Notes: generated by a model from the letters alone, not told the origin. Positions 1 through 19,948 are shown, counted from the first letter of the stretch. The stretch: DNA of 20,000 nt from an uncultured virus (IMG/VR IMGVR_UViG_3300024283_000012) (IMGVR_UViG_3300024283_000012), one strand, 5' to 3'. Translations and numbers: made by a program.

Positions 1-598
1 GGATCTGAGCTTGGATGCTGTCACGGCCGCAACGAAGCGGTATATCCTGAACGGCAAATTCTTCCCGAAGATTGCCGAGATTCGCGAACTGTGCGCCGGT
101 TCGACTGAAGATCAGGTTCAGAACGCCTGGAACCTGCTGAACAAAGCCTACCGCAAAGCTGGTGAAATGGACTCAGTTTGTTTTCAGGATCCGGCTATGG
201 CTTACGCGCTGACCAAAACGTTCACCACCTGGACGAACTGCGCGAACGAACTTTACACCTTGTCGCCCGAGATGCTGGCATTCAAGAAAAAAGAATTCGG
301 CAAGAATTATAAACTCTACGCGATCGAACAACCGGACAGCCAGCCGCTCTATTTTCCCGGCAAGGCGGAGTCGTCGAATCGTCAGTCCGCTGGCAAATGG
401 ATGATTAAAATCGATTCATTCAAGCAGCCGGTTCATCTGGTCGGACCCGCGGACGTGGATACAGTAAATCTGAACTTCGACGGTGGTACAGGACTGCTGA
501 CTGAAGCGAGCGCCAAACGGCTTTACGCATTCCAGACGGGTATTCGCGAGATCAAGGCTGGCAACGTACAGGCGCAAATAGTCGAAACGATTCAGTAG
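1..598 (+). CDS. 5'-truncated phage replication-region protein, DUF6475-like (helicase loader/inhibitor-like N-terminus)
   Basis: Frame is open from the window edge (no stop before 11). The motif KFFPKIAEIRE followed by AW..L.KA.R..G..DSVCFQDP....W..C ..L.F.KKEF.K.Y is the pattern I recognise from DUF6475-type phage proteins. Confidence 0.6.
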   Translation, partial: DLSLDAVTAATKRYILNGKFFPKIAEIRELCAGSTEDQVQNAWNLLNKAYRKAGEMDSVCFQDPAMAYALTKTFTTWTNCANELYTLSPEMLAFKKKEFGKNYKLYAIEQPDSQPLYFPGKAESSNRQSAGKWMIKIDSFKQPVHLVGPADVDTVNLNFDGGTGLLTEASAKRLYAFQTGIREIKAGNVQAQIVETIQ

Positions 599-658
599 CA
601 CCCCTCGCACACCTGGAGCGGCTGGAGGAGGCACGGTGGAAGGTTTACGGGAGGTGAA

Positions 659-1369
659 TTGATGCGCTTCGGCTCGTTATTTTCAGGTATTGGCGGAATT
701 GATTTAGGTCTTGAACGCGCGGGTATGTCCTGTGCGTGGCAGGTGGAGATTGACGATTATGCAAACAGGGTACTTGCAAAACACTGGCCCGATATTCCCA
801 GATTTAGAGACGTGCGCGAAGTCGGAAAGCACAATCTTGAGCGAGTCGACCTTATCGCTGGCGGATTCCCCTGCCAGGACGTTTCGGTCGCAGGACTCAA
901 CGCTGGACTGTCAGGTGAGCGATCTGGCCTATGGCGGGAGTATCTCCGGATTGTTTGCGATCTACGACCCCGATTCATCATCGTGGAAAACGTTGCAGCG
1001 CTCCTTGGTCGAGGGGCAGGACGAGTACTCGCGGACCTTGCCAGCGTCGGGTACGATGCGGAATGGCAGACTATACAAGCGTCCGACGTTGGCGCACCAC
1101 ACAGTCGCGCCAGAATCTTCATTGTTGCCTACTCCGACAGCTTCAATGGGCAAACGGGGCTGGGGTCTTTCGAGAACGGGCCGCCTCAGATATTCACAGA
1201 CGGTAACAGACAACGCTTTCCGATTTGGCTACAGACCGCCGATCGGTTTATTGGAGTGGATGATGGGGTTTCCGGAAAACTATACAGAAATCGCAGCGTA
1301 GCAATTGGAAACGCAGTAGTCCCGCAAATTGCGGAATACATCGGCCGGGCAATCCTGGCAGCAGCCTAA
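659..1369 (+). CDS. DNA (cytosine-5)-methyltransferase, large (alpha-like) polypeptide
   Basis: Motif I SLFSGIGG, catalytic motif IV GGFPCQD, motif VI ENV, motif VIII R.RIFIVA and motif X GNAVVP. RBS GGAGGTG at about 650-656; the start is TTG 659 or ATG 662. Confidence 0.95.
   Translation: MMRFGSLFSGIGGIDLGLERAGMSCAWQVEIDDYANRVLAKHWPDIPRFRDVREVGKHNLERVDLIAGGFPCQDVSVAGLNAGLSGERSGLWREYLRIVCDLRPRFIIVENVAALLGRGAGRVLADLASVGYDAEWQTIQASDVGAPHSRARIFIVAYSDSFNGQTGLGSFENGPPQIFTDGNRQRFPIWLQTADRFIGVDDGVSGKLYRNRSVAIGNAVVPQIAEYIGRAILAAA
759..1301 (+). CDS. Alternative-frame ORF nested in the C5-MTase gene; putative small (beta-like) subunit carrying TRD segment and motif IX
   Basis: Frame is open 711-1301. 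ATG 759 has GGAG at 745-748. Encodes LLPTPTAS (TRD-like) and a C-terminal LLEWMMGFPENYT (motif IX-like) that is absent from the main frame. Confidence 0.7.
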   Translation: MQTGYLQNTGPIFPDLETCAKSESTILSESTLSLADSPARTFRSQDSTLDCQVSDLAYGGSISGLFAIYDPDSSSWKTLQRSLVEGQDEYSRTLPASGTMRNGRLYKRPTLAHHTVAPESSLLPTPTASMGKRGWGLSRTGRLRYSQTVTDNAFRFGYRPPIGLLEWMMGFPENYTEIAA

Positions 1370-1416
1370 CCCCTGTCCGCAATTGCGCGGGCGGTGGTCG
1401 GCGGAGGAGATGAGCG

Positions 1417-1929
1417 ATGGCAACGGTATTTCGAATGGACAATCGATTCGGTAAAACGCACAAGGAAGAGTGGTTGACTCCGCCTGAGATTATCCGCGCG
1501 CTTGGAAGATTCGACCTGGATCCCTGTGCGCCAATTATCCGGCCGTGGCCGACCGCTGATCAGCATTACACGATTGCTGACGATGGATTAAAGCAGCAAT
1601 GGACAGGCCGCGTCTGGATGAATCCACCGTTTGGCGCAAAGGCACGTGTGTGGCTAAAGAAACTTGCGGATCACGGTAACGGAATCGCTCTGATCGCTGC
1701 GAGAACAGAAACCAGAGCCTTCTACGAATCGGTCTGGATGCGCGCCGATGCTGTTCTGTTCCTGATCGGTCGACCGCATTTTCATCACGTTAACGGCGAA
1801 AGAGCATCGGCGAATAGTGGCGCTCCGATTTGCCTGGTTGCTTATGGCAAACAGAACGTTGTTGCTCTGCGTGAGTCAGGGCTTTGGGGACACTTGGACG
1901 AGTTTTCACAAGAGAACATCGTCGTGTGA
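1417..1929 (+). CDS. Phage DNA N6-adenine methyltransferase (Dam/PF05869-like)
   Basis: EW.TP, FDLDPCA, DGL.Q.W.G.VWMNPPF (NPPY/F catalytic motif) and ARTET. RBS GGAGG upstream. Confidence 0.9.
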   Translation: MATVFRMDNRFGKTHKEEWLTPPEIIRALGRFDLDPCAPIIRPWPTADQHYTIADDGLKQQWTGRVWMNPPFGAKARVWLKKLADHGNGIALIAARTETRAFYESVWMRADAVLFLIGRPHFHHVNGERASANSGAPICLVAYGKQNVVALRESGLWGHLDEFSQENIVV

Positions 1930-1974
1930 GTATAGCGCCAGCCCCTGCGCTGCGAAATGGGGTGGAGGTTGATT

Positions 1975-2265
1975 GTGGATTATGTAATTGATCAATTACC
2001 GGATTGCAGCGTCGATTACTGCGGTTCGGTCGCGGCAAAGCGGTTCTCGACCATAATGGAGAGCCACGGCGAAGTGGAGCTTTTCTATTGCGATGATCAT
2101 TTTCAAGCTTTTGAAACGAAGCTCGCGGAAGTGATCGGACTGCCGCGTGATCAGGTTAATCTTGCGATGTCGCCGTTGAATTTGGTGGCCGGCCAGATTC
2201 GCGACGTGATTGATTGGCTGGACGGCAAGGCGAAACCGCTGGCGACTGCGGAGCAAATGCGATGA
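1975..2265 (+). CDS. Hypothetical protein (possible Cys/His metal site: C..C...C / YCDDH)
   Basis: ORF 1957-2265. GGAGG at 1964-1968 favours GTG 1975. The stop overlaps the next start (ATGA). Confidence 0.6.
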   Translation: MDYVIDQLPDCSVDYCGSVAAKRFSTIMESHGEVELFYCDDHFQAFETKLAEVIGLPRDQVNLAMSPLNLVAGQIRDVIDWLDGKAKPLATAEQMR

Positions 2266-2444
2266 TCTGCCCTGAGTGCAAAAAGACTGAGGGTAAATCC
2301 CGCCTTCGCGTTACTCACACGCTGAGCCTGAATGATGGCAGTACGACCCGTCGCTACTATCGCTGCCCCGTCTGCTCGAAGAGCTTTATTACAACGGAAT
2401 CCCGGCCTGAGCGTGTTAAAAAGCGAAATCAAGAAGCCGCATAA
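2262..2444 (+). CDS. Small zinc-ribbon protein, Ogr/Delta- or NrdR-N-terminus-like; candidate late-gene transcription regulator
   Basis: MICPEC...RVTHT...TRRYYRCPVCSKSFITTE fits CxxC...RRxxxCxxC..FxTxE. ATGA coupling at 2262-2265. Confidence 0.75.
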   Translation: MICPECKKTEGKSRLRVTHTLSLNDGSTTRRYYRCPVCSKSFITTESRPERVKKRNQEAA

Positions 2445-2452
2445 AAGATTAG

Positions 2453-2499
2453 TGCTACATATAGCATACGGAAATCTTTGCAATACCACGTATAGCATA
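2453..2499. promoter_or_regulatory. Tandem imperfect 16-bp repeat, first copy palindromic; candidate operator/activator sites
   Basis: TGCTACATATAGCATA (2453-2468; TGCTA-N4-TAGCA dyad) and TACCACGTATAGCATA (2484-2499), 31 bp apart, in the gap before the holin-like gene. Confidence 0.45.
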
Positions 2500-2521
2500 G
2501 TGTGGGTTAACCTTGGCTGAA

Positions 2522-2893
2522 ATGAACAAAGACACCCAGATAAAAGCAAGCGGAGCGCTCTATTCGTTCATCCGTGCCGTGGTCTATCTGGTCTCCGCAT
2601 GGCAGCTAAAGAAATCCGGCGGTCACCCTGACGACACCGTGGTTGACTGGATGACCGGGCTGATACTGCCGGTGGCTGCACCCGTGGCCGCGTTCGTCTG
2701 GGGTCAGTACCAGTTGCATTACAGGACCGATAGCGCGGCGCTGAAGATCGACACGGCGCTGGAATTGCCCAGCGGCACAACGAATTCACAGTTGAATGCG
2801 GTGGTTGCCGTGCTGAAGCCCGAGATTGCTAAATCACCTGAGACGCCGCTGACTGTTTTAGTGGATCAGGCGTCACAAGGAATTGTCAAATAA
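2522..2893 (+). CDS. Putative phage holin (two hydrophobic segments, soluble C-terminal tail)
   Basis: SFIRAVVYLVSAW and WMTGLILPVAAPVAAFVWGQY resemble small two-TM phage holins. Start is ATG 2522 or TTG 2513. Confidence 0.55.
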   Translation: MNKDTQIKASGALYSFIRAVVYLVSAWQLKKSGGHPDDTVVDWMTGLILPVAAPVAAFVWGQYQLHYRTDSAALKIDTALELPSGTTNSQLNAVVAVLKPEIAKSPETPLTVLVDQASQGIVK

Positions 2894-2901
2894 GGAGATT
2901 T

Positions 2902-3165
2902 ATGGGCCCACAATACATTGTCGAAGAAGGCTCAACGGTTAGTTTCACGATTCAGGATGGCCCAATCAAAGAGGTCGGCGTCAACGGCTGTCAAATTGAC
3001 GACGTGGTTGAATGGGCAAAGAACAAGATCGAAGGTTTCCAGAAAGCGTATCCCTGCCGCGAAAACGCGCTGGTAATCACAAAGCTAGATGAGGCGTTAC
3101 TGTGGCTCTACAAACGCAAGGCCGACCGTGAAAAACGCGGCGTGGAAGGACAGAATAAATTATGA
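2902..3165 (+). CDS. tad1: Tad1-family (Acb2/Tad1 hairpin) anti-defence sponge protein
   Basis: F.IQ.GPIKE.GVNG...DD......I.GFQ...PCRENA..ITKLDEALLWL..R..DR..RGVEG.N matches the Tad1 core as I recall it. RBS AAGGAG. Confidence 0.8.
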   Translation: MGPQYIVEEGSTVSFTIQDGPIKEVGVNGCQIDDVVEWAKNKIEGFQKAYPCRENALVITKLDEALLWLYKRKADREKRGVEGQNKL

Positions 3166-3671
3166 AACGACTTACCCGTACCCCGCTCGTGCTCCTGCTG
3201 CTGTCGATGATGGCGATGACGGCGTGTGGACCTGGCAAACCGCCTGTTAACACAAACCCGACCGTATACGACCGGCCTGCGCAGATTCTTGGCAGCGTGA
3301 TCGATTCGACAAACGCGATTGAAGCCGTTTTAAAGAATCACCACGTCGCAAAGGTCGCCTCGATTCGTTCTGATTCAACCTTGACCAGCCAGGCGCGAAA
3401 GAAAGCACTCACAGCAGAGACTAACAGCTTTGAATCGCTGAATAATATCTACAAACGGGCGCTATCGACCGAACGCGATGCCGCAAATACGATTCAATCG
3501 CTGGCCAAGTCCGGTGGATCGCCACAAACGGCTGTCGACAAGGTGCAAATCATCGCCAATATCGTTGTCAATGAACTGCTGGGCGCCGTGAGTGATCCCG
3601 AAACGCGGCAATCTTTGACGCAGCTAAACACGCTGATTCAGCAATTGATTACGAGTTTGAAAGGAAACTAG
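3162..3671 (+). CDS. Lipoprotein with alpha-helical mature domain
   Basis: Basic N-terminus MKRLTR, hydrophobic core and lipobox MTA-C (Cys22), followed by a Pro/Gly linker. ATGA coupling to the upstream gene. Confidence 0.75.
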   Translation: MKRLTRTPLVLLLLSMMAMTACGPGKPPVNTNPTVYDRPAQILGSVIDSTNAIEAVLKNHHVAKVASIRSDSTLTSQARKKALTAETNSFESLNNIYKRALSTERDAANTIQSLAKSGGSPQTAVDKVQIIANIVVNELLGAVSDPETRQSLTQLNTLIQQLITSLKGN

Positions 3672-3788
3672 GTGTCCATTTTGTCAATCGTCGCATGGGA
3701 CGCTAAATCGCCGCGCCAATGGGAAGCGCACGGGCGCAGGATACGAGAGCGGCAAAGCGGCGGATGGATGGATGAGGAAGGTGAAGAT

Positions 3789-3992
3789 ATGTCAACAAAC
3801 ACAGTTTTAACCGACGGAATTATCATCACAACGCTTTTACTCAAGATCAAATCGCTAACCGGTCTCGGCTATGCGGAAATCCTGGCGCAGTCATTCCCGG
3901 AACTGGATGCGGGCGTGGCTGAATCGCTGGCAAATGATGCGATGATCGCAGAGGAACGGAAGTTTAATGCGGCAATTGATGACGGCGCGTAA
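3789..3992 (+). CDS. Small hypothetical protein
   Basis: ATG 3789 follows purine-rich GAGGAAGGTG; the longer ORF from GTG 3672 is also possible. Confidence 0.5.
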   Translation: MSTNTVLTDGIIITTLLLKIKSLTGLGYAEILAQSFPELDAGVAESLANDAMIAEERKFNAAIDDGA

Positions 3993-4285
3993 GATACTCG
4001 CGGTCGCATCGGAGCGCACTTCATGTCTTGAGGTGATGGGGCTAGATTTGATTAACCGCGAATTGTGGCCTGCTGTGATTGCGACCGTGGGGAGATTTTG
4101 AATGGATGTATATGGAATTTGCGGTCGCGCCCAGCGATTCTCCGCGCCTCTAACTAAGCGATATTTGAATCTGTGGCGAGACTGCGAAAAGATTGAATAA
4201 GCCAGCAAAACAGACTGGCGCAAAGCTTTCACCCTAATGGAAGCAGGTACAATGATTGCTTTATTGTTGAAAAGGTGAACGTGAG

Positions 4286-4732
4286 GTGCCTGAAAGACAA
4301 TGGGAAACCCCGGAATGGTTCAAAGATCAGGAACGCCGACATCTTTGGACCTACCAGAATATAACTGAACTTGGGGCTACGATGAGCGCTCTTGTAAAGG
4401 TTGTCGAAACAATGCGAGAGGACGTAGATGACTGTAAAGAAAAAGACAGCGACACGTCCACGAAGTTAGATATCGTTATCCAGCTCCTGAAACCCTTTAC
4501 CGATGCGCACGATCAGCAGATACAGCGCCAGATACTAACTGCTGTCACGCCCCAGGGCACAACTATTCAGCAAACCACAACGACAACCGTCACACAAAAC
4601 CCGATTGAGTGGGCGGTAAAGAATCCTTTAAAAGCGGTGATTACCGCAGGCTTTTCGATTCCAGCTATTATCTACGTCTGGAAGGCCCTTGTCTGGTTCG
4701 TGCAGCTCCTGGCGACGTATGGCAAACCGTGA
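4286..4732 (+). CDS. Coiled-coil protein with C-terminal transmembrane helix (holin/XhlA-like architecture)
   Basis: Heptad-like central region, Thr/Gln linker and hydrophobic AVITAGFSIPAIIYVWKALVWFVQLL. Confidence 0.65.
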   Translation: MPERQWETPEWFKDQERRHLWTYQNITELGATMSALVKVVETMREDVDDCKEKDSDTSTKLDIVIQLLKPFTDAHDQQIQRQILTAVTPQGTTIQQTTTTTVTQNPIEWAVKNPLKAVITAGFSIPAIIYVWKALVWFVQLLATYGKP

Positions 4733-5447
4733 ATCTATTCTGATTATCGAGGATATCGACGACACCCGCGAACTGTTCGAGGTCGGGCTACCAATGTACG
4801 GGTATAAGACGTACACGGCCCGCGATGGGCAGGAAGGCCTCGACCTTTACGAAAAGCACCGATGTCCGGTTGCGATCGTCGATGTAATGCTGCCTTCCGC
4901 TGTCACCGAAGATCTGAACGGCTACAAGGTATCTGCGAAAATCAAAGAGAAAAACCCTGACGCTATCGTAATAATCGTGACGGGTGCAACTGAGCCCGAG
5001 CAGCCAATCTCGAAGGTTCGGATCCTCGACAGCCACGCCGACATAATACTGACGAAGCCGGTCACGGTCGATCAGGTGGTAACAGAGATTCAGTACATAC
5101 AGGCAAAGCGGGACGCGATAAAGCCGCGTGTATTGCGTGCGCCATCGAATCGCCTGATGTGGATCGGCCTTGCCATCCTGTTCGGCGCCCTCGTGGTCGG
5201 TCTGTGCGGCATCTCCGCGGCGAGCTATCACTTCTATGCTGTCGAGACTGCGCGTCACGGTCAGGAAATGATGGACCTGCGACGCGATGAGGACAGGCGA
5301 TTTCTGGATCTGCAACACGCGATGGAGCGCGAAACGGATATGAAGCTCGCACAGATGCAGGGCCAGATTAATTACCTCGAACCGCGTGTCCTGACCCTGG
5401 AAAAAGAATTGTCACGTATGCACGGTGAGATAGGGAGGAAGAAGTAA
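4719..5447 (+). CDS. CheY-like receiver domain fused to a TM helix and C-terminal coiled coil
   Basis: ILIIEDIDD (acidic pocket), A.DG.EGL, VAIVDVMLP (phospho-acceptor Asp), NGY, IIVTG and ILTKP. These are followed by the TM LMWIGLAILFGALVVGLCGISAA and a coiled coil. ATG 4719 overlaps the upstream gene by 14 nt. Confidence 0.88.
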   Translation: MANRESILIIEDIDDTRELFEVGLPMYGYKTYTARDGQEGLDLYEKHRCPVAIVDVMLPSAVTEDLNGYKVSAKIKEKNPDAIVIIVTGATEPEQPISKVRILDSHADIILTKPVTVDQVVTEIQYIQAKRDAIKPRVLRAPSNRLMWIGLAILFGALVVGLCGISAASYHFYAVETARHGQEMMDLRRDEDRRFLDLQHAMERETDMKLAQMQGQINYLEPRVLTLEKELSRMHGEIGRKK

Positions 5448-5833
5448 TGGACTGCGATCAGCGTTGTCAGAAGATATTGCTCTGTATGCTTTGCGCCGCG
5501 TTTAATCTGCTCGCACAGAATACGGCACAGCGCAGGTGGAAAAGCGATCATCAAACCCTGAGCGACGATTTCAAGGCAAGGCAACTGGCGCGACTGATGA
5601 GCCTGCAAGTGATCCTGGATGAATGCTATGTGATTATCGGCGTCCAGCCCGCCCGGGCTCCGGTGACGTTGCGGGCGCTGTCCGCTCAGCTCGAATGGTT
5701 ATCGAAGCCGCGCGGGTTGGAAGAGGCAAAGCAGTGGGATCTGATCGAAAAGAGCGAACAGATTGAATCGATCTGCGATGAGAATCAGGCAGAGTATTTG
5801 GCCGAGATAAAGTATCTGCCGAAAGCCGCGTAG
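5447..5833 (+). CDS. Hypothetical protein with Cys-rich hydrophobic N-terminus
   Basis: TAATG coupling to the REC gene and RBS GGGAGG; begins MDCDQRCQKILLCMLCAAF. Confidence 0.65.
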   Translation: MDCDQRCQKILLCMLCAAFNLLAQNTAQRRWKSDHQTLSDDFKARQLARLMSLQVILDECYVIIGVQPARAPVTLRALSAQLEWLSKPRGLEEAKQWDLIEKSEQIESICDENQAEYLAEIKYLPKAA

Positions 5834-5841
5834 GTGCAAAC

Positions 5842-6213
5842 GTGCCTGAAGAATCGATCAGCCTGACGAAGTATTTTATCTCGCTGCTGCGCGAACTGGA
5901 AAAGCGCGTCTACCAGAGATTCAAGGATCTTCGGCGCGCTCTCAGGACCGATCTCGATTCTCTGAACAAACGCCTCGATGCGATGAATGAGATACGCGGG
6001 ACGTTGAAAGATCAGCAGACCCAATTTATTACCCGCGCCGAACATAACGCGCTGGCGGATCGCGTATCAAAGACTGAAGCATTCCAATCTGAGATAGGCG
6101 GCACAACAAAGGCCCAGCGCGAAGGCAAGCAGAATAATCAGTGGCTCATCGGGATAGTCATCAGCATCGTGGTCGTGGTGGTTATACAGGTGATAACGCT
6201 GCTGCGGAAATAG
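5842..6213 (+). CDS. Coiled-coil protein with C-terminal TM anchor
   Basis: Long amphipathic helix, then WLIGIVISIVVVVVIQVITLL and a basic RK end. AGGTG upstream of GTG. Confidence 0.7.
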   Translation: MPEESISLTKYFISLLRELEKRVYQRFKDLRRALRTDLDSLNKRLDAMNEIRGTLKDQQTQFITRAEHNALADRVSKTEAFQSEIGGTTKAQREGKQNNQWLIGIVISIVVVVVIQVITLLRK

Positions 6214-7416: not shown

Positions 7417-7506
7417 TGATCAAATCTCCTTTTGCGGGTGATGCGGTCAATTCGGCCCCGGGTGTTACAAGCGCTCGGGGCTTACTGTTTCCTGCTGACA
7501 AGAGAG

Positions 7507-7535
7507 ATAATAAAGAATCATTGATTAATTGTCAA
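7507..7535 (-). promoter_or_regulatory. Near-consensus sigma70 promoter for the leftward operon
   Basis: TTGACA (7535-7530), 17 bp, TATTAT (7512-7507) with AT-rich upstream DNA. The dyad AATCA-T-TGATT (7516-7526) lies in the spacer. A possible second promoter TTGCGA-16-TATCTT is at 7569-7542. Confidence 0.8.
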
Positions 7536-7643
7536 GCATAAAAGATAAAATATATTTGATTATTCGCAAGCTGAACGAATGCAATGGTTTACAGGCGATA
7601 GATATTTAATAGTGTACTTTATATAACAAAGCACTTGTAGGTA

Positions 7644-8126
7644 ATGAAAGCAGGGTTTAGAATCAGGGAGATGTCCACTGTTTTACACAAGCCAAACAAA
7701 AGTGAACACGTCGGCACAAGGAACCTGAAGCCGTTCCAGCCGGGTCAGTCCGGTAATCCCCTCGGGCGCTCTATCCGCAAATACAGCGTCGTCAATCAAA
7801 TGAAAGACCTGCTTGCCGGGGTCCATTATGACAAGTATACAGCGGAGAAGCTCGCGCTTGAGTTTATGAAACGGCTGTACAGCAAGAAGACGACACCGAC
7901 GGTCTGGGTCCAAATGGTCAGCCTGCTATTCCAATACACCGAACAGAAGCCCGTCCAAAAGATCGAAGTGTCCACCGACGATGACGACTTTCGCCGCAAG
8001 ATGGCTATATTCCTTGAGGAATGCAAGCGCCTGGGGCTGAAGACAAGCGAGGATGAGGCAGCGCGGTTTCTGAATGAGGCCGTGATCGAGACGACCGCGG
8101 AGGTGGGTGGCGATGCTGAAGTGTAA
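7644..8126 (+). CDS. Putative terminase small subunit (DUF5681-type N-terminal motif)
   Basis: NLKPFQPGQSGNPLGR motif, helical middle and KPVQKIEV; first gene of the rightward packaging operon. Start 7644 or 7671. Confidence 0.65.
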   Translation: MKAGFRIREMSTVLHKPNKSEHVGTRNLKPFQPGQSGNPLGRSIRKYSVVNQMKDLLAGVHYDKYTAEKLALEFMKRLYSKKTTPTVWVQMVSLLFQYTEQKPVQKIEVSTDDDDFRRKMAIFLEECKRLGLKTSEDEAARFLNEAVIETTAEVGGDAEV

Positions 8127-8349
8127 CGACTGCGGGACTGAGCTTATTAACGAAGCCGTTGAATCGCCTATTGGGTGGATCTGTATGCGGTGTTTCAGCA
8201 AGGCTATCTATTGGGACGGTGCGGGCCATACAGAGTTGAAATGCGCTGCCTCCGATGGGCAAGTCAATATACCGGCGTTCACCGTTGAATCAACTGTTAT
8301 CGATTACCCCGACTGGCCTGACTTTGTGGATAAGGACGCAAGATTATGA
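8113..8349 (+). CDS. Small zinc-ribbon hypothetical protein
   Basis: CNDC...CMRC; overlaps neighbouring genes. Confidence 0.55.
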   Translation: MLKCNDCGTELINEAVESPIGWICMRCFSKAIYWDGAGHTELKCAASDGQVNIPAFTVESTVIDYPDWPDFVDKDARL

Positions 8350-8582: not shown

Positions 8583-8754
8583 AAAAGATACCGGCATCTA
8601 TGGCGAGTTTGCCGTTATGTCGCGTGACGAGAAAACGCAGACAGCAGAATGCGTTGACCGCGATAGTCGAATCATCCGAATGACGCAGGATGCCTTGGAA
8701 TCTGCTCGCGGATTACCCGTGCCAATACTCAATAGTCAGGAAGATAAACAGTAG
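8572..8754 (+). CDS. Small hypothetical protein
   Basis: RBS AAGGAG upstream; overlaps the previous gene. Confidence 0.55.
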   Translation: MANEKDTGIYGEFAVMSRDEKTQTAECVDRDSRIIRMTQDALESARGLPVPILNSQEDKQ

Positions 8755-8919
8755 CACAAACGCGCCTCTCGCCAGATTCCCTGTCCACGCATAGTTAGGA
8801 CCGCCAGCAGTCCAGCCAATCCCACATAGCAGAATAAACGTTGCGAGAATCCAATCGACCATTAGCCAGGTGAGCGCGAATGGAGCGGACAGCAACAACA
8901 GAAATGTAATAACAGGCAT
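8713..8919 (-). CDS. Small integral membrane protein (2-3 TM), moron-like
   Basis: Almost entirely hydrophobic 68 aa, RBS GAGGT, and an extended -10 TGG-TATACT at 8974-8966 on the minus strand. Confidence 0.6.
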   Translation of the reverse strand: MPVITFLLLLSAPFALTWLMVDWILATFILLCGIGWTAGGPNYAWTGNLARGAFVLLFIFLTIEYWHG

Positions 8920-9004
8920 AGCGAAACCTCACGGTAAGGAATTGCGCTGGAGGTCGCTTTGGGTCAGTATACCACACCCCTGACAGCAGTATGTCAGTAT
9001 CTTG

Positions 9005-9815
9005 CGGCACCCCGGGTTAATGCGCGGTCAAAATGATACGAATTGGATGGGGTGATGTGTCGCTAAACGTAGTAATGCCCGGTGCTTTAAGGAAGGATTG
9101 TGCAGATCGAATCCGAAAGATACACCGGGCAATACATTTCGACGCAATTTGAGGCAGCAAGCCCCGACTAGGGTCATAATGACATAAATAACCCTTGCGT
9201 TCAATGTCAAAATGGGTTTATTATCGAAATCGTGCAGATTGAATTTACACCATTTCATTGACGATTACGACAAAGCGGTGGAAGCCCGTCTGCACACGGG
9301 CATGCTCAAGGGTTGCCCAGTGTTCTTTGATAACTCGATTACTTTTGTAATCCCCGGTTAAATTAAGGGTGCGACGTTTCCGGGCACACAAAACAAGAAA
9401 CCCGCCTGCATGTCATTATCCGCTGACGTAAATTCGTCCTATGGATTCATCGGCTCAGGCAAAGGTGACAAGAGACGCCAAGTTGTAGGCGTTGATTACG
9501 AAGGCTAGGTCAACTGGTTTTCCTGTCTGGCTGCAGATAGGTTTTTCCGGGCTACGGGATGGTGATTGATCCATCAATGCAGGGTTACGCCCCGGTCGAT
9601 TCGGCTCATATGCGAAATAAATCAGGTAAGGCCGAACCTGTAGATGCTTACGAGTCTACACTAGCCGACAGTTGAAAGTCCCACAACCAAACAAATGTGA
9701 GTTATCAAGGTCACTATACGAGCATGATTCCCTATTAACAGTATCCGGTAGGGCGCAGAGGCGTCTAATAGGATATATGAGAGAGGGAAACCCTGCACCA
9801 TGGTTTCTTTTTTTA
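9005..9815 (+). ncRNA. Candidate large (~810 nt) highly structured phage ncRNA (GOLLD/ROOL-like size, or new class)
   Basis: No convincing ORF. More than 15 helices are visible by eye, including long-range 9325-9336/9699-9710, 9302-9307/9720-9725 and 9405-9411/9577-9583. Non-Watson-Crick positions are G-U on the + strand. A hairpin plus U-run ends the region at 9786-9814. Confidence 0.75.
9782..9814 (+). terminator. Intrinsic terminator-like hairpin closing the candidate ncRNA
   Basis: GGAAACC (9786-9792), loop CTGCACCAT, GGTTTCT (9802-9808), followed by a T-run to 9814. Confidence 0.55.
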
Positions 9816-9823
9816 GGCTTTTT

Positions 9824-10294
9824 ATGATTTATGCAGAAAATCAACCTTGTCCATCACGGAATTGTGATAGCTGGCTGAAGGTTCGTCGTCGACCTGCCGG
9901 ATGGAAACCTGATCCTTCGTACAAGTATCAATATGCGGTGTGGTATGTTTGCAAGCACGGCCATACTCACTTCAACGATGTCGACAAACGATTCCCTGAG
10001 CATATTCGCGCCGAAAAAACTGAAAAGCGATTATTTAACCCTGACGAGATTACTGTCGTTAAAGCCCCAAAGCCGTCTATAATTGCTGCGAAGTCAGAAC
10101 AGAAGGTGCTTGGTCCTGCGCGAATGTCAGCAACCCAGGCCGCCCGTGCAACCGCAGGCCGTCACCTGCTCACGAACCTGCTGCGCGCTCGCTACGTTGA
10201 CCAGGGCGACGAGGATGTGACGGAGACTATGGGTAAGATCGAGAAGAGAAAGCAACGGAGTCTGAAGCGGAAGATGAAAAGGAAAACAGGATGA
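9824..10294 (+). CDS. Basic hypothetical protein with N-terminal Cys/His zinc site
   Basis: CPSRNC...CKHGH and a Lys/Arg-rich C-terminus (KRKQRSLKRKMKRK). ATG 9824 lies just after the terminator-like hairpin; ATG 9800 lies inside it. Confidence 0.7.
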   Translation: MIYAENQPCPSRNCDSWLKVRRRPAGWKPDPSYKYQYAVWYVCKHGHTHFNDVDKRFPEHIRAEKTEKRLFNPDEITVVKAPKPSIIAAKSEQKVLGPARMSATQAARATAGRHLLTNLLRARYVDQGDEDVTETMGKIEKRKQRSLKRKMKRKTG

Positions 10295-10512: not shown

Positions 10513-10833
10513 GTGAAGATTCAGGCGCGAATTGTGCTAGATAAGCAATGGGGCAATAACAAAGTCACCTGCCCTTCGTGCTTGCGTTACGACGACGTGA
10601 AAATGAGCAGATATGTCAGTAGTTATACCACAAGGGCACGATACTGCCTGCGCCGCAGCTGGCTTTCGCGTAAACTCTGCGCGCTGCGCAACAAGATCAC
10701 AGAAGACCATTGGCACGTTAAATGCGCATTTTGCCGTTACAAATATCTGATGGGCAAGCCCGTTCCGCAAGAGCAGGTCGAGGAATTCACGATCAGCAAG
10801 CTCGAATCGTTATGGAAAGGCGGCCCGGAATGA
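10513..10833 (+). CDS. Zinc-finger hypothetical protein
   Basis: CPSC...H..CAFC; purine-rich RBS region. Confidence 0.65.
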   Translation: MKIQARIVLDKQWGNNKVTCPSCLRYDDVKMSRYVSSYTTRARYCLRRSWLSRKLCALRNKITEDHWHVKCAFCRYKYLMGKPVPQEQVEEFTISKLESLWKGGPE

Positions 10834-11295: not shown

Positions 11296-11829
11296 ATGAC
11301 CGAACTTGAATCATATCGTCAGTGGATGCACCCGGCGCATAAGCATTTTGGCGCCAAGCCGCTGGCGGTCGATCGCGCAATCAATGAGGCGATTTATCGT
11401 GATGGCGGTACGGGTGGACGCGACAACCCTGACCACGTATTCAATCCTGACGAATGGTGCCTCGATTGCAATCCATCGCGAGACGCCGAGCACGAACCCC
11501 TTACCGCAACAGTGCCGACGGAGTATTGGACGCCGAAACCTGTTATGTACTCCCGCTATTGCTCCACCTGCCATACGGTTTTCGATAGTTTTGACCCGTT
11601 TGACCGAGTGTACTGCGAGGGCTGTAAAGCACCAGAGCCGATGACGCTGGCGAGGGCGGTCGAGGTGCTGAATGAGCACAAGTGGGACGGTTGCACGAAT
11701 TGGGTAGCCAGCGAGAATTCAATTAACGGCGCGTTCGCAATTCCAGCAGACTCGGATAGCCCGCGCAAGGACATGGTCGAGCCGTTCGTCGCCATTGCAA
11801 TCGCTGAAAAGCTCCTGCGTGAATCCTAA
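11296..11829 (+). CDS. Hypothetical protein with several CxxC motifs
   Basis: CLDC, CSTC and CEGC; TAATG coupling to terL. Confidence 0.65.
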   Translation: MTELESYRQWMHPAHKHFGAKPLAVDRAINEAIYRDGGTGGRDNPDHVFNPDEWCLDCNPSRDAEHEPLTATVPTEYWTPKPVMYSRYCSTCHTVFDSFDPFDRVYCEGCKAPEPMTLARAVEVLNEHKWDGCTNWVASENSINGAFAIPADSDSPRKDMVEPFVAIAIAEKLLRES

Positions 11830-13727
11830 TGGACGAGTATCAGCAAAAACTGGAGCTGGCCCAAAAGATCAACCTGATGGCCGGGATTAAGAACGGCAAG
11901 GCTCGCTCTATTGAATCCTCCCTCATCGAGGCCGACTGGCGCGTGTGGCTCAAAACCGTCGGCCCGCATACGTTCACAAAAGAATTCTCGTTCTTCCACG
12001 CAGAGTTATGGCAGTGGTACTGGGCGATCACTCAGAAGCTGCGCCACAAAGAGCCGCTGACAGAGGACGATCTGGTGTTCTTCGCAATCTGGGCGCGGGG
12101 GTTCGGCAAGACATCAAACGCCGAATGGTGTGCGATCGCTGAGGGCGCGCTGATTGGCTCTGGCTATGTGCTCTATGTGAGCGGCACAGCGGTTCAGGCT
12201 GAAGGCCACGTCGCGTCGATTCGTTCCCGCCTGGAATCCGAAGAGATAACGAAATACTATCCCGCGCTATCGAATCCGAAGATAGGCGAGCACGGCAATC
12301 AGCACGGCTGGGGTAAGGAGTTCCTGAAGACTGACAGCGGCTGGTCGATACGTCCGGTAGGCCTCGATCAGAACATCCGCGGCGTCAAAGAAGGCGACAT
12401 GCGCCCGACGCTGATAATCCTCGACGATATTGACGATGTGAACGATTCCCCCCACGTTGTCGACCAGAAGATCAGGAAGATCACGGGATCAATTCTACCG
12501 ACAGGGACGGCCTATACGCGCAAGATATTCGCTCAAAACCTGATTCATCGTAACAGCGTGCTAAACCTCGCGTTCACCCGTAAGCGGGATTTACTCCAGC
12601 GTCGAATCGTCAAAGGGCCGTACCCGGCATTTCAGGATCTGCAGATAGAGGTCGATTCAACGCCTGCTGGCCCTATTAACCGGATCACTGCCGGCCGCCC
12701 GACCTGGCCCGGTATTGATATGCAGGAAGTGCAACGATTCCTTGATGACTCCGGGCGGGATCTATTTCTCGCGGAGTATCAGCACGATTTCAGCGGCGTC
12801 GATCAGAAGCGCGTTATCCCTGAGTATGACGAGACGATTCACATCATTACGTGGTCGCAGTTCGAGAAAGTATTCGGCGTTCGTTATATCCCCGAGCACT
12901 GGCTGCGCGAAGTCGGTCACGATATTGGGTACACTAAAGAGCATCTTTCAAGCTGGTCGTTTGTGGCAACGAGCGCAAAGAATTCGCCGTTTCCTAACCT
13001 GAAGTTCCTTTATCGAGGGCTGAACTACTGCGAGCCATTGCTCGACGATATGGCAGCCGATGTGATTCGAATACTTCAGCCTGACTATTCTGTGGGGCGT
13101 CGCTTTGACGAAAAGGAATGCATTACCCGCTGGAAAATGAGCCACGAGAAGAAGGGCGAGCGGATGACGTATCAGCAGAAATACAAGTTGCCGTTTACGC
13201 CCGTCGACTTCAGCAAATCCGACGGTATTTCGCAATGGCGCCATTATCTGCGATGTGATCACAAACTGAAGCATCCGTTTATGGACGACTATCAGGCCAG
13301 CGCTGACTCACCCTGGTCAATTGGCCGCCCGTCTCTCTACTACATTGTCGATGACGACCAGGTCACGATGCCGCGTAATGACGCTGGCCTTGCCAATCAC
13401 AGGCGCGAATTGCTGAACTGGGAGATGCGTCGGAGCGTTGAGACCGATACCGGATACAGCAAAGAACAGCCGGTAAAGGCGCGCGACGATGCGGCCGATT
13501 CCTTCAGGATGATCACAGCGTCTTGGGGACCTGGCGCGCTGGAACTAACCCCAGCCGAACAACAGGAGGTCGACCTGCCCGACCCGTACAAGATCGAGAA
13601 CATCGCCAAGGCTTCCCCTCTCGCGCAGCAGCAGTTGTATATGGCGCGGATGGCTGAAATACAGGCTCAGAAAGATAAAAAGGCACAGGCGCAAGGAGAT
13701 TGGATCAAATCGCCTTCGTCGTGGTAG
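11829..13727 (+). CDS. terL: Terminase large subunit
   Basis: Walker A WARGFGKTS, Walker B LIILDDIDD preceded by IRG...RP, F.AEYQ, and RNase H-like nuclease residues in GHDIG and DDAADSFR. Confidence 0.92.
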   Translation: MDEYQQKLELAQKINLMAGIKNGKARSIESSLIEADWRVWLKTVGPHTFTKEFSFFHAELWQWYWAITQKLRHKEPLTEDDLVFFAIWARGFGKTSNAEWCAIAEGALIGSGYVLYVSGTAVQAEGHVASIRSRLESEEITKYYPALSNPKIGEHGNQHGWGKEFLKTDSGWSIRPVGLDQNIRGVKEGDMRPTLIILDDIDDVNDSPHVVDQKIRKITGSILPTGTAYTRKIFAQNLIHRNSVLNLAFTRKRDLLQRRIVKGPYPAFQDLQIEVDSTPAGPINRITAGRPTWPGIDMQEVQRFLDDSGRDLFLAEYQHDFSGVDQKRVIPEYDETIHIITWSQFEKVFGVRYIPEHWLREVGHDIGYTKEHLSSWSFVATSAKNSPFPNLKFLYRGLNYCEPLLDDMAADVIRILQPDYSVGRRFDEKECITRWKMSHEKKGERMTYQQKYKLPFTPVDFSKSDGISQWRHYLRCDHKLKHPFMDDYQASADSPWSIGRPSLYYIVDDDQVTMPRNDAGLANHRRELLNWEMRRSVETDTGYSKEQPVKARDDAADSFRMITASWGPGALELTPAEQQEVDLPDPYKIENIAKASPLAQQQLYMARMAEIQAQKDKKAQAQGDWIKSPSSW

Positions 13728-18790: not shown

Positions 18791-19948
18791 ATGCTCGAAG
18801 ATGAAGTAATTGCCGAAGTTGAGCCGACAGAGGACACCGATTCGTCTGGTGAGCCTGAAGTCGTCGAAACTCCCGCACCGGTAGAATCTGCACCCGCTTT
18901 GCCGGCTGATGTAGCCGCAAAATTAGCTCAATACGAACAATACGAAGCCAGCCACAAATTCGTCGATCAATTCGGCGGCATTGAAGCACTGCAAGCCAAA
19001 GTGGACCTTGACGCGGCGATCCGATCAGGTGACCCGGTTAAAATCCATCAGGCAATCGCAGAACGGAATGCCAGAGCCGTCACTGGGCTTGCAAACCATT
19101 ACGGTGCGCAAGGCCAGCAACCAGTTGACGAAACAGCGATACTCGAAAAGTATCTGGGCAAAGGCGTAAACCAGGAAACCCTTCGGGAGTTTGCTGCTTA
19201 TCGCGAGTCGCCCGACAGATTTTCGAATATTCCTGAAGAGTTTCGTTTCATCAAGGACGAATACGGTCAACTGACGCCACGCGCGCCGGATGATCCAGTT
19301 CTCCAGCAGGCTCAATTCTTCCAAAAGCTAATTCAGAACCAGGCTAATGAACTCGCCGCACTCAAATCTGAGGTGCGACAACCGAAAGAAGTTGAAGCAC
19401 AGCAGCGTTTTGAGCAGCAGTGGACAGCAAGCCAGGATCGGCTTGTCGGTCCCGTAAAAGACGAAGCCACGAAGCTTGGTCTTTACACAGCGCCCGCTGG
19501 CGAGACACCGGAAGCGAAGGCAGAACGCGAATATCAACTTAAATCATTTGTTTACGCAAGCACTGGCGAATTCCAGAACGACCCGCAGGTCAAGCGAGAC
19601 CTGGCCGAACTGGAAGGCCATTACCAGCGCGGTGAAACTGTTGCCGCAAGGGAAAAGGAAGCCAAGCTATCGCGTCGAATGCGAGAGATTGCGCAGGCAA
19701 ATATTCAAGTTGTAGGCAAAAACTGGACTGCCGCCCTCCAAAAGAAAACGACAGTCGTCAAGAAAGCAACGAGTGCGAAAACTGACCCGAAAACCGTCAA
19801 TAACTCGGCCAAGCTGCCCGACCTGCTGGAAAAAGCACAGCAAAAAACGGGCGGATTAGGCGGCCTCGCGGATTACATCAAAAAGCATCCGCAGTTTCAG
19901 GGCCGACCCGAAGTCGTTGACGAGATACTGGGCCAGCGTCATTCGTAA
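18791..19948 (+). CDS. Putative capsid scaffolding protein
   Basis: Acidic Pro-rich disordered N-terminus, helical Gln/Ala/Glu-rich body, Lys/Thr-rich C-terminal linker; located after the portal gene. RBS GAGGG. Confidence 0.65.
   Translation: MLEDEVIAEVEPTEDTDSSGEPEVVETPAPVESAPALPADVAAKLAQYEQYEASHKFVDQFGGIEALQAKVDLDAAIRSGDPVKIHQAIAERNARAVTGLANHYGAQGQQPVDETAILEKYLGKGVNQETLREFAAYRESPDRFSNIPEEFRFIKDEYGQLTPRAPDDPVLQQAQFFQKLIQNQANELAALKSEVRQPKEVEAQQRFEQQWTASQDRLVGPVKDEATKLGLYTAPAGETPEAKAEREYQLKSFVYASTGEFQNDPQVKRDLAELEGHYQRGETVAAREKEAKLSRRMREIAQANIQVVGKNWTAALQKKTTVVKKATSAKTDPKTVNNSAKLPDLLEKAQQKTGGLGGLADYIKKHPQFQGRPEVVDEILGQRHS

Follow-up and report, generated by a model that had tools for sequence, protein, structure and literature searches.

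The DNA analysed here, a stretch of 20,000 nt from an uncultivated soil phage (hereafter the window, with positions counted from its first letter), contains a gene-free gap of about 900 bases (8920–9823), and the question that it raises is what this gap does. The original prediction saw in the greater part of it a single giant structured RNA of about 800 nt, transcribed from the plus strand between the genes for the small and large terminase subunits (terS and terL), closed by long-range helices, and either a divergent member of a class such as GOLLD or ROOL or the first of a new one. The reading that we tentatively prefer, with a probability of roughly 0.4, is that the gap is a plus-strand spacer or leader, rich in hairpins, through which the entry of transcription into the packaging operon is gated.

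The gap itself is real. On the left, coding ends at 8919 with a leftward ORF for a hydrophobic protein of 68 residues, which was taken as a real gene because, of the 11 substitutions that contigs from sequencing runs X19 and X21 have at 8809–8902, 10 fall in third codon positions; a 3-nt insertion in the same contigs keeps its frame. The adjoining spacer probably provides this leftward ORF with its promoter and 5′ UTR. On the right, the next ATG is that of a 156-aa ORF with a Cys/His-rich amino-terminus and a basic tail. It belongs to no family found in Pfam, PHROGs or NCBIfam, and was judged probably real because it has one relative, at 58% identity, beyond its own cluster. ESM Atlas predictions for two ORFs neighbouring the gap were uninformative, with all scores below 0.9. 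The coordinates of these and the other features are collected in Table 1.

Table 1. Features of the gap and of its flanking genes, in window coordinates.
Feature	Position	Strand	Remarks
terS-like gene (160 aa)	7644–8126	+	weak DUF5681 hint; tblastn relatives
68-aa hydrophobic ORF	8713–8919	−	left border of the gap
Left spacer	8920–9002	undefined	no ORF, no coding signal
Block D1, two hairpins	9003–9150	+	hairpins 9008–9054 and 9056–9146
Variable linker	9151–9316	undefined	folding no better than shuffles
Block D2, row of local hairpins	9317–9727	+	nominally closed by 9302–9336/9699–9725
Internal terminator-like hairpin and T5	9522–9546	+	found by terminator scan; 8 pairs, 4 of them G-C, loop of 4
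Stable hairpin just before the terminator	9741–9776	+	pair probability 0.97–0.98
Terminator-like stem	9780–9815	+	GAAACC 9787–9792/GGTTTC 9802–9807, T7 at 9808–9814
156-aa ORF, first gene right of the gap	9824–10294	+	ATG at 9824
terL	11829–13727	+	PHROG 38, terminase large subunit, E 3.4e-16

The gap is non-coding, as had been predicted. It contains no ORF longer than 76 aa, and a codon-usage score trained on 24 genes of the window stays at or below 0.14 bits per codon in all six frames of 8950–9800. These 24 genes use all three stop codons (TGA 11, TAA 8 and TAG 5 times), and no frame spans the gap when TGA, TAG or TAA is read through. For the internal ORF of 76 aa there is no candidate homologue, while one of 62 aa gave only three multi-stretch, low-complexity matches (E 8e-6 to 8e-4) to proteins of 638–1645 aa. 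A further internal ORF (9212–9361) has its frame broken by indels in a relative's contig. A pseudogene remnant was looked for by tblastx against the proteins of 74 loci and rejected (best E 0.47).

The predicted location between terS and terL is loosely right. The gene at 7644–8126 is called terS-like because it has tblastn relatives (31–34% identity; E 5.5e-6 and 1e-6) that, in the two loci L046 and L058, immediately precede terL. Here, 3.7 kb separate it from terL, containing nine small ORFs besides the gap, and this 3.7-kb block is absent between the two genes in the distant relatives. The terL gene has 365 homologues; two close ones, P0004 (85% identity) and P0005 (71%), are encoded in Logan assemblies. 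A profile search with it yielded 44 + 4 + 18 loci, in all of which terL is at most 60% identical, and none of these loci shares with the window the genes upstream of terL, except for the terS-like gene in the two loci just mentioned. Relatives of terL at 32–38% identity are located in prophage-like loci on the chromosomes of MAGs assigned to Pyrinomonadaceae, and the phylum Acidobacteriota is thereby hinted at as host of the wider terL family. Some terL homologues, of 998–1071 aa, contain intein or Hint domains (P0047 and P0070; L046–L048). Four of the ORFs between the terS-like gene and terL (8107–8349, 9824–10294, 10513–10833 and 11296–11829) are Cys-rich orphans with paired CxxC-type motifs.

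Early-type genes occupy positions 1–6200, among them genes for a C5 methylase, a Dam methylase and a receiver-domain protein. The surrounding DNA had been described as tightly packed, which is not uniformly so, as ORF-poor stretches other than the gap exist. One ORF-free interval of 293 nt (3993–4285) separates two plus-strand ORFs, where it may represent a small folded element or a cluster of terminators; the 300-nt tile 3901–4200 has a folding z-score of −4.13 on the plus strand (12 shuffles) and the next tile one of −3.07. Upstream of the terS-like gene, between it and a leftward 194-aa ORF, a strong pair of divergent sigma-70-like promoters is located (7507–7556), one on the minus strand (7535–7507, 11/12) and one on the plus strand (7529–7556, 10/12). 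A GC-rich hairpin of 13 pairs (7454–7482) adjoins these back-to-back promoters, and the region 7454–7556 as a whole looks like a classical divergent control region.

Membership of a known RNA family was not found. Cmscan of the whole window against Rfam, whose families include GOLLD, ROOL, introns and ribozymes, gave no match at gathering score, and a permissive scan of 8700–10000 at E ≤ 10 returned two noise matches only, to Yar_3 (E 0.29) and 5.8S (E 1.1). The gap was thus rejected as a member of GOLLD, whose covariance model is unmatched at either threshold, and equally of ROOL, whose Rfam model is unmatched at gathering score and at E ≤ 10. Group I and II introns and self-cleaving ribozymes were discarded as well; they have no match at E ≤ 10 in 8700–10000, and the ORFs flanking the gap are not the two halves of one gene. 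ARAGORN lists no tRNA or tmRNA gene in the 20-kb window.

GOLLD and ROOL are large ornate RNAs associated with phages and prophages, with lengths from about 600 to over 800 nt, which are often, not obligatorily, located near tRNA islands, and cryo-EM structures of both contain disordered internal linkers, according to the account given in PMC12286853. The gap resembles them in being phage-borne, non-coding, of similar size and without a known protein partner. It differs from them in matching neither Rfam model, even at E ≤ 10, and in its surroundings, since they are often near tRNA islands and the window has no tRNA gene. Covariation defines the folds of GOLLD and ROOL, which include pseudoknots and long-range contacts; the long-range helices of the gap are at chance level (see below).

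Homologues of the gap were also sought at the nucleotide level. Blastn found none in INPHARED, PLSDB or E. coli genomes, and no match was obtained with four exact patterns against IMG/VR and one against GTDB genomes. The other 73 of our loci (L001–L074 in all) contain neither a homologue detectable by blastn or nhmmer nor a comparable element; the same is true of ten related phage records of IMG/VR. In four MAGs carrying distant terL relatives the best match (E 0.007) was a 35-nt chance match, and 401 Acidobacteriota genomes contained no homologue. Single queries of IMG/VR with the 156-aa ORF and with terL found no relative. Six ORF-poor stretches of relatives were considered as candidates for an analogous gap; they have stop-free runs of 100–286 codons and no consistent excess of hairpins. 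The gap sequence is present in soil-metagenome runs, and among the 23 runs listed with it there is no RNA dataset.

All 17 helices listed in the original prediction are complementary as described, with 111 pairs of which four are G-U. The partition function gives ten of them a mean pair probability of at least 0.65, two of 0.2–0.3 and five of 0.10 or less; the closing helices (9302–9336/9699–9725) reach 0.65–0.70. As a measure of long-range pairing, all pairs of 50-nt segments separated by 250 nt or more were compared and the most stable duplex was taken. In the gap it amounts to −32.5 kcal/mol on the plus strand and −31.9 kcal/mol on the minus strand, the latter being the proposed closing helix, while 206 dinucleotide shuffles average −35.4 ± 2.9 kcal/mol. 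Closing helices of this quality are expected by chance, because 174 of the 206 shuffles equal or surpass the gap. The proposed long-range closing helices are thus at chance level. Moreover, the minimum free energy (MFE) structure switches to a different long-range topology when folding is started at 9003 instead of 9005. Since the long-range duplexes are at chance level, separate modules are favoured over one fold. More generally, long-range helices found by hand in a stretch of 800 nt carry no weight alone, as shuffled sequences provide equally good ones.

As to the folding energy, the whole stretch is better than its shuffles on both strands (z −2.46 on the plus strand and −3.67 on the minus strand, with 20 shuffles each), in line with what had been expected of it, and the excess over the shuffles, about −21 kcal/mol, is equal on both strands. 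With the pairing span restricted to 100 nt or less, z is −3.13 on the plus strand and −2.36 on the minus strand, against values between −1.8 and +2.4, on both strands, for 12 of 13 controls of equal length. In the same test, control 18900–19712 gives −3.0 on the plus strand and −5.8 on the minus strand (25 shuffles). This is the strongest-folding stretch of the window, with 300-nt tiles of −2.3 to −3.7, and it lies within an ORF (18791–19948) for a charged, coiled-coil-like, scaffold-like protein of 385 aa that matches no family. A z near −3 is therefore not proof of function, because this coding stretch folds as well as the gap or better. When the gap is divided into 300-nt tiles, these are unremarkable on the plus strand (−0.8, −1.0 and −1.5), and on the minus strand 9001–9300 has a z of −3.23. 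The gap shows a real, though moderate, surplus of local hairpins.

These hairpins are unevenly distributed. Block D1 folds with a z of −3.06 on the plus strand, matched or surpassed by none of 200 shuffles, and with one of −2.88 on the minus strand, where 2 of 200 reach it; its second hairpin is built around a GC-rich core of 9 bp (9076–9084/9123–9131) with a pair probability of 0.99. In the linker that follows, 9151–9300 has z-values of only −0.71 on the plus strand and −1.27 on the minus strand. Block D2 contains hairpins at 9337–9352, 9474–9493, 9500–9522, 9523–9540, 9558–9575 and 9640–9659, with pair probabilities of 0.80–0.99, and the region 9300–9727 has a z of −3.20 on the plus strand (0 of 60 shuffles as good) and −2.63 on the minus strand (1 of 60). 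The 3′ module (9727–9815) folds only on the plus strand, where z is −2.86 (1 of 200), compared to +0.26 on the minus strand (114 of 200). The plus-strand bias of folding stems mainly from this module. Such strand specificity in the 3′ module supports the plus-strand orientation of the original prediction. No GNRA-type loop is present among the eight most probable hairpins.

At the right end of the gap, the hairpin and U-run that had been pointed out are both present (Table 1). With a core of 6 bp, a loop of 9 nt and a pair probability of 0.6, the stem would be a mediocre terminator, and it is not listed by the terminator scan, which has a loop limit of 8. Its T7 run ends 9 nt upstream of ATG 9824, so that a predicted intrinsic terminator directly precedes the first gene after the gap, as in a Q-type leader. 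The internal terminator-like hairpin at 9522–9546 has pair probabilities of 0.90–0.99; it is absent from the sequence of the X23 contig, in which similarity begins at 9541. The hairpins preceding the putative terminators of the gap do not have hexaloops. The ORF at 4689–5447 encodes a response-regulator receiver domain (Pfam E 1e-15), followed by a carboxy-terminal half of about 115 aa without family match. An ANTAR-type antiterminator was considered for this ORF and rejected, as only the receiver domain is recognised and ANTAR is not matched. No antiterminator family was found among the ORFs of the 20-kb window (29 in Pfam, 16 in PHROGs and 9 in NCBIfam).

A promoter for the gap is harder to place. 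The best plus-strand sigma-70-like sites in 8880–9900 all stay below 9/12. The possible −10 element TATCTT at 8998–9003 that had been proposed does not hold up: no −35 element is located at usable spacing, and 9003 is precisely the point upstream of which relatives lose similarity. The gap is touched by just one site of 9/12 or better, on the minus strand (9853–9824, TGGACA-18-AATCAT), where weaker promoter-like sites are also found at 9061–9033 (8/12) and 9204–9176. A 16-nt near-repeat containing TGCAGAT occurs at 9097–9112 and 9229–9244, with 14 of 16 positions identical and the two copies 132 nt apart; about 0.1 such pairs would be expected by chance by our own estimate. A third partial copy (9532–9545) falls within the internal terminator-like hairpin. 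The repeat is therefore a possible protein-binding motif. A replication origin with iterons was rejected, because there are only these two to three copies, without an iteron array, and the skew does not change.

The comparative data consist of fragmentary Logan contigs from four runs, with patchy cover and a depth of 2–4, so that single differences may be errors. In two of them (X19 record 7 and X23 record 11) similarity is lost exactly upstream of 9003, and both have the same foreign flank. To the right of this border, the X23 contig has 6 differences in 143 nt (9003–9145, 96% identical). Two of its differences, A to G at 9089 and G to A at 9115, are opposite each other across an internal loop of the 9056–9146 hairpin; this swap of facing purines might preserve a non-canonical pair or, at a depth of 2.6, be coincidental. 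In 9267–9313 the same contig has nine deletions, totalling 22 nt, plus several substitutions, and these linker deletions remove the 9302–9307 strand of the proposed outer helix. In 9317–9407 there are again only three substitutions, two of which (9365 and 9395) are unpaired in the centroid fold and the third (9317) is in a weak hairpin of 3 bp. Helix 9405–9411/9577–9583 is altered on both strands without compensation, if records 12 and 13 are from one genome. The X21 contig, from a closer strain, has no difference in 8903–9035 (133 nt) compared to eight, at wobble positions, in 8788–8902 (115 nt), a pattern which points to constraint or to recent recombination.

Blocks of about 95% identity beside DNA that cannot be aligned suggest sequence-specific constraint, which would suit a functional RNA, a protein-binding site or a leader alike. 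Such a mosaic, in which conserved blocks lie on either side of an indel-rich linker, agrees with separate functional modules between which the linker is free to vary; as judged from these contigs, it does not fit one co-folded RNA of 800 nt.

According to the preferred reading, the gap would be an untranslated, hairpin-rich spacer within the lineage-specific 3.7-kb block that separates the terS-like gene from terL; transcribed rightwards, it would form a long leader to the genes for packaging and structure, which make up one operon, and would not yield one giant RNA. Polymerase would start either at the strong sigma-70-like promoter 7529–7556 or at an unrecognised promoter within the gap, and, moving rightwards, would have to pass both intrinsic-terminator-like hairpins, 9522–9546 and 9780–9815 (T7). 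Since only 9 nt separate the second of these from ATG 9824, there is no room for a promoter between them. The spacer would therefore act as a transcriptional gate, and the late genes could be controlled through termination, through read-through or antitermination, or by attenuation. The independently folding hairpins may be elements for stability, processing or factor binding, and the leftmost 80–140 nt would function as promoter and 5′ UTR for the leftward 68-aa gene. Transcription of the gap, termination in it and its gating role are what we infer from the features described above.

The nearest textbook analogue in function would be the late leader of lambdoid phages. Lambda 6S RNA is about 200 nt long, and the leader proposed here, of up to about 800 nt, would be far longer. 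In the lambdoid leader, which runs from PR′ to tR′, an intrinsic terminator precedes the late genes and the Q antiterminator is needed for read-through; this Q-type arrangement, with a terminator ahead of phage late genes, is established (10.1101/651190 and PMC7547250). The likeness of the gap lies in its predicted terminator, with a T-run 9 nt before the first downstream ATG. The difference is that neither a plus-strand sigma-70-like promoter of at least 9/12 nor a Q-binding or pause element was found in the gap, and no Q-family protein among the ORFs of the 20-kb window.

Other explanations share part of this evidence. The conserved blocks could belong to one or several independent, modular, new plus-strand ncRNAs, made for their own sake and not as a leader, with regulatory, anti-defence or factor-sequestering roles, a reading that we regard as possible, if rather doubtful. 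The units might for instance be D1 (9003–9150) and a second one ending at the 9522–9546 or the 9780–9815 terminator, as both plus-strand terminator-like sites could set 3′ ends. The identity of about 96–97% of 9003–9145 and 9317–9407 in a relative that cannot be aligned next to these blocks, the sharp start of similarity at 9003 in two contigs, the unchanged 133 nt of the X21 contig alongside 115 nt with eight wobble changes, the z near −3 of D1 and D2 each and the 9089/9115 purine swap across the internal loop of the best hairpin all agree with such units. However, they would have no recognised promoter and no Rfam relative, GNRA-type loops are missing from their eight most probable hairpins, D1 and D2 have similar z on both strands, and, at depths of 2–4 with possible errors, mosaic recombination could mimic constraint. 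A single giant ornate RNA of about 800 nt, closed by its long-range helices and forming a new class resembling GOLLD and ROOL, is very improbable. Its size, phage origin and non-coding status would be right, and the pair probability of 0.65–0.70 for the closing helices, the whole-stretch z of −2.46 on the plus strand and the terminator-like stem at the 3′ end speak in its favour; yet long-range duplexes no better than chance, an MFE topology that changes upon a 2-nt shift of the 5′ end, an unstructured and indel-rich 9151–9316 and the loss of the 9302–9307 strand in a relative are not what such a fold would lead one to expect. The uncompensated changes on both sides of helix 9405–9411/9577–9583, a terminator-like hairpin inside the proposed RNA and the absence of Rfam matches and of nearby tRNA genes add to this.

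An explanation without any RNA function, in which the gap would act at the level of the DNA (through binding sites for proteins, as a junction of modules or of recombination, or as a site for packaging or replication) or would be decaying filler that gene loss has left in a variable region between terS and terL, is unlikely. It would agree with the position of the gap in a block that distant relatives do not have between the terS-like gene and terL, with the sharp break of homology at 9003 and the indel-rich segment, with the near-repeat at 9097 and 9229 (14/16) and its partial third copy at 9532, and with the finding of similar z-values in a coding region. On the other hand, tblastx against 74 loci uncovered no protein remnant (best E 0.47) and there is neither an iteron array nor a skew inflection; the 3′ module, which folds on one strand only, speaks for a signal at the RNA level, and the conserved blocks argue against pure filler. 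With leftward transcription, starting from the promoter-like site 9853–9824, the gap would be a long 5′ leader belonging to the 68-aa gene. This is very unlikely, even though that site, on the minus strand, is the only one of at least 9/12 touching the gap and the minus-strand z-values are −3.67 for the whole stretch and −3.23 for 9001–9300. The 9727–9815 module is unstructured on the minus strand, the z for local folds is weaker there (−2.36 versus −3.13), and a leader of 900 nt would be odd for an ORF of 68 aa that has weak promoters closer by (9061–9033 and 9204–9176).

A further idea is that 9003–9150, 9317–9727 and the 3′ module together make up a phage ncRNA of about 800 nt between the terminase genes, new and restricted to this lineage, with independently folding modules connected by a disordered, fast-evolving linker. 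Such an arrangement would resemble GOLLD and ROOL, in which modules are joined by a disordered linker as described in PMC12286853. We consider it decidedly unlikely; such an RNA might have a role in packaging or in late-gene control.

What the gap means for the biology of this phage depends on the reading. A discrete RNA would be a new phage ncRNA between terS and terL, and would raise the question whether RNA has a role in packaging or in late control. If the gap is the transcriptional leader or gate that we favour, it would be a regulatory spacer of an ordinary kind, belonging to a lineage of phages that is very poorly known, and an example, from an uncultivated soil phage, of a kilobase-long, hairpin-rich untranslated stretch beside the terminase genes.
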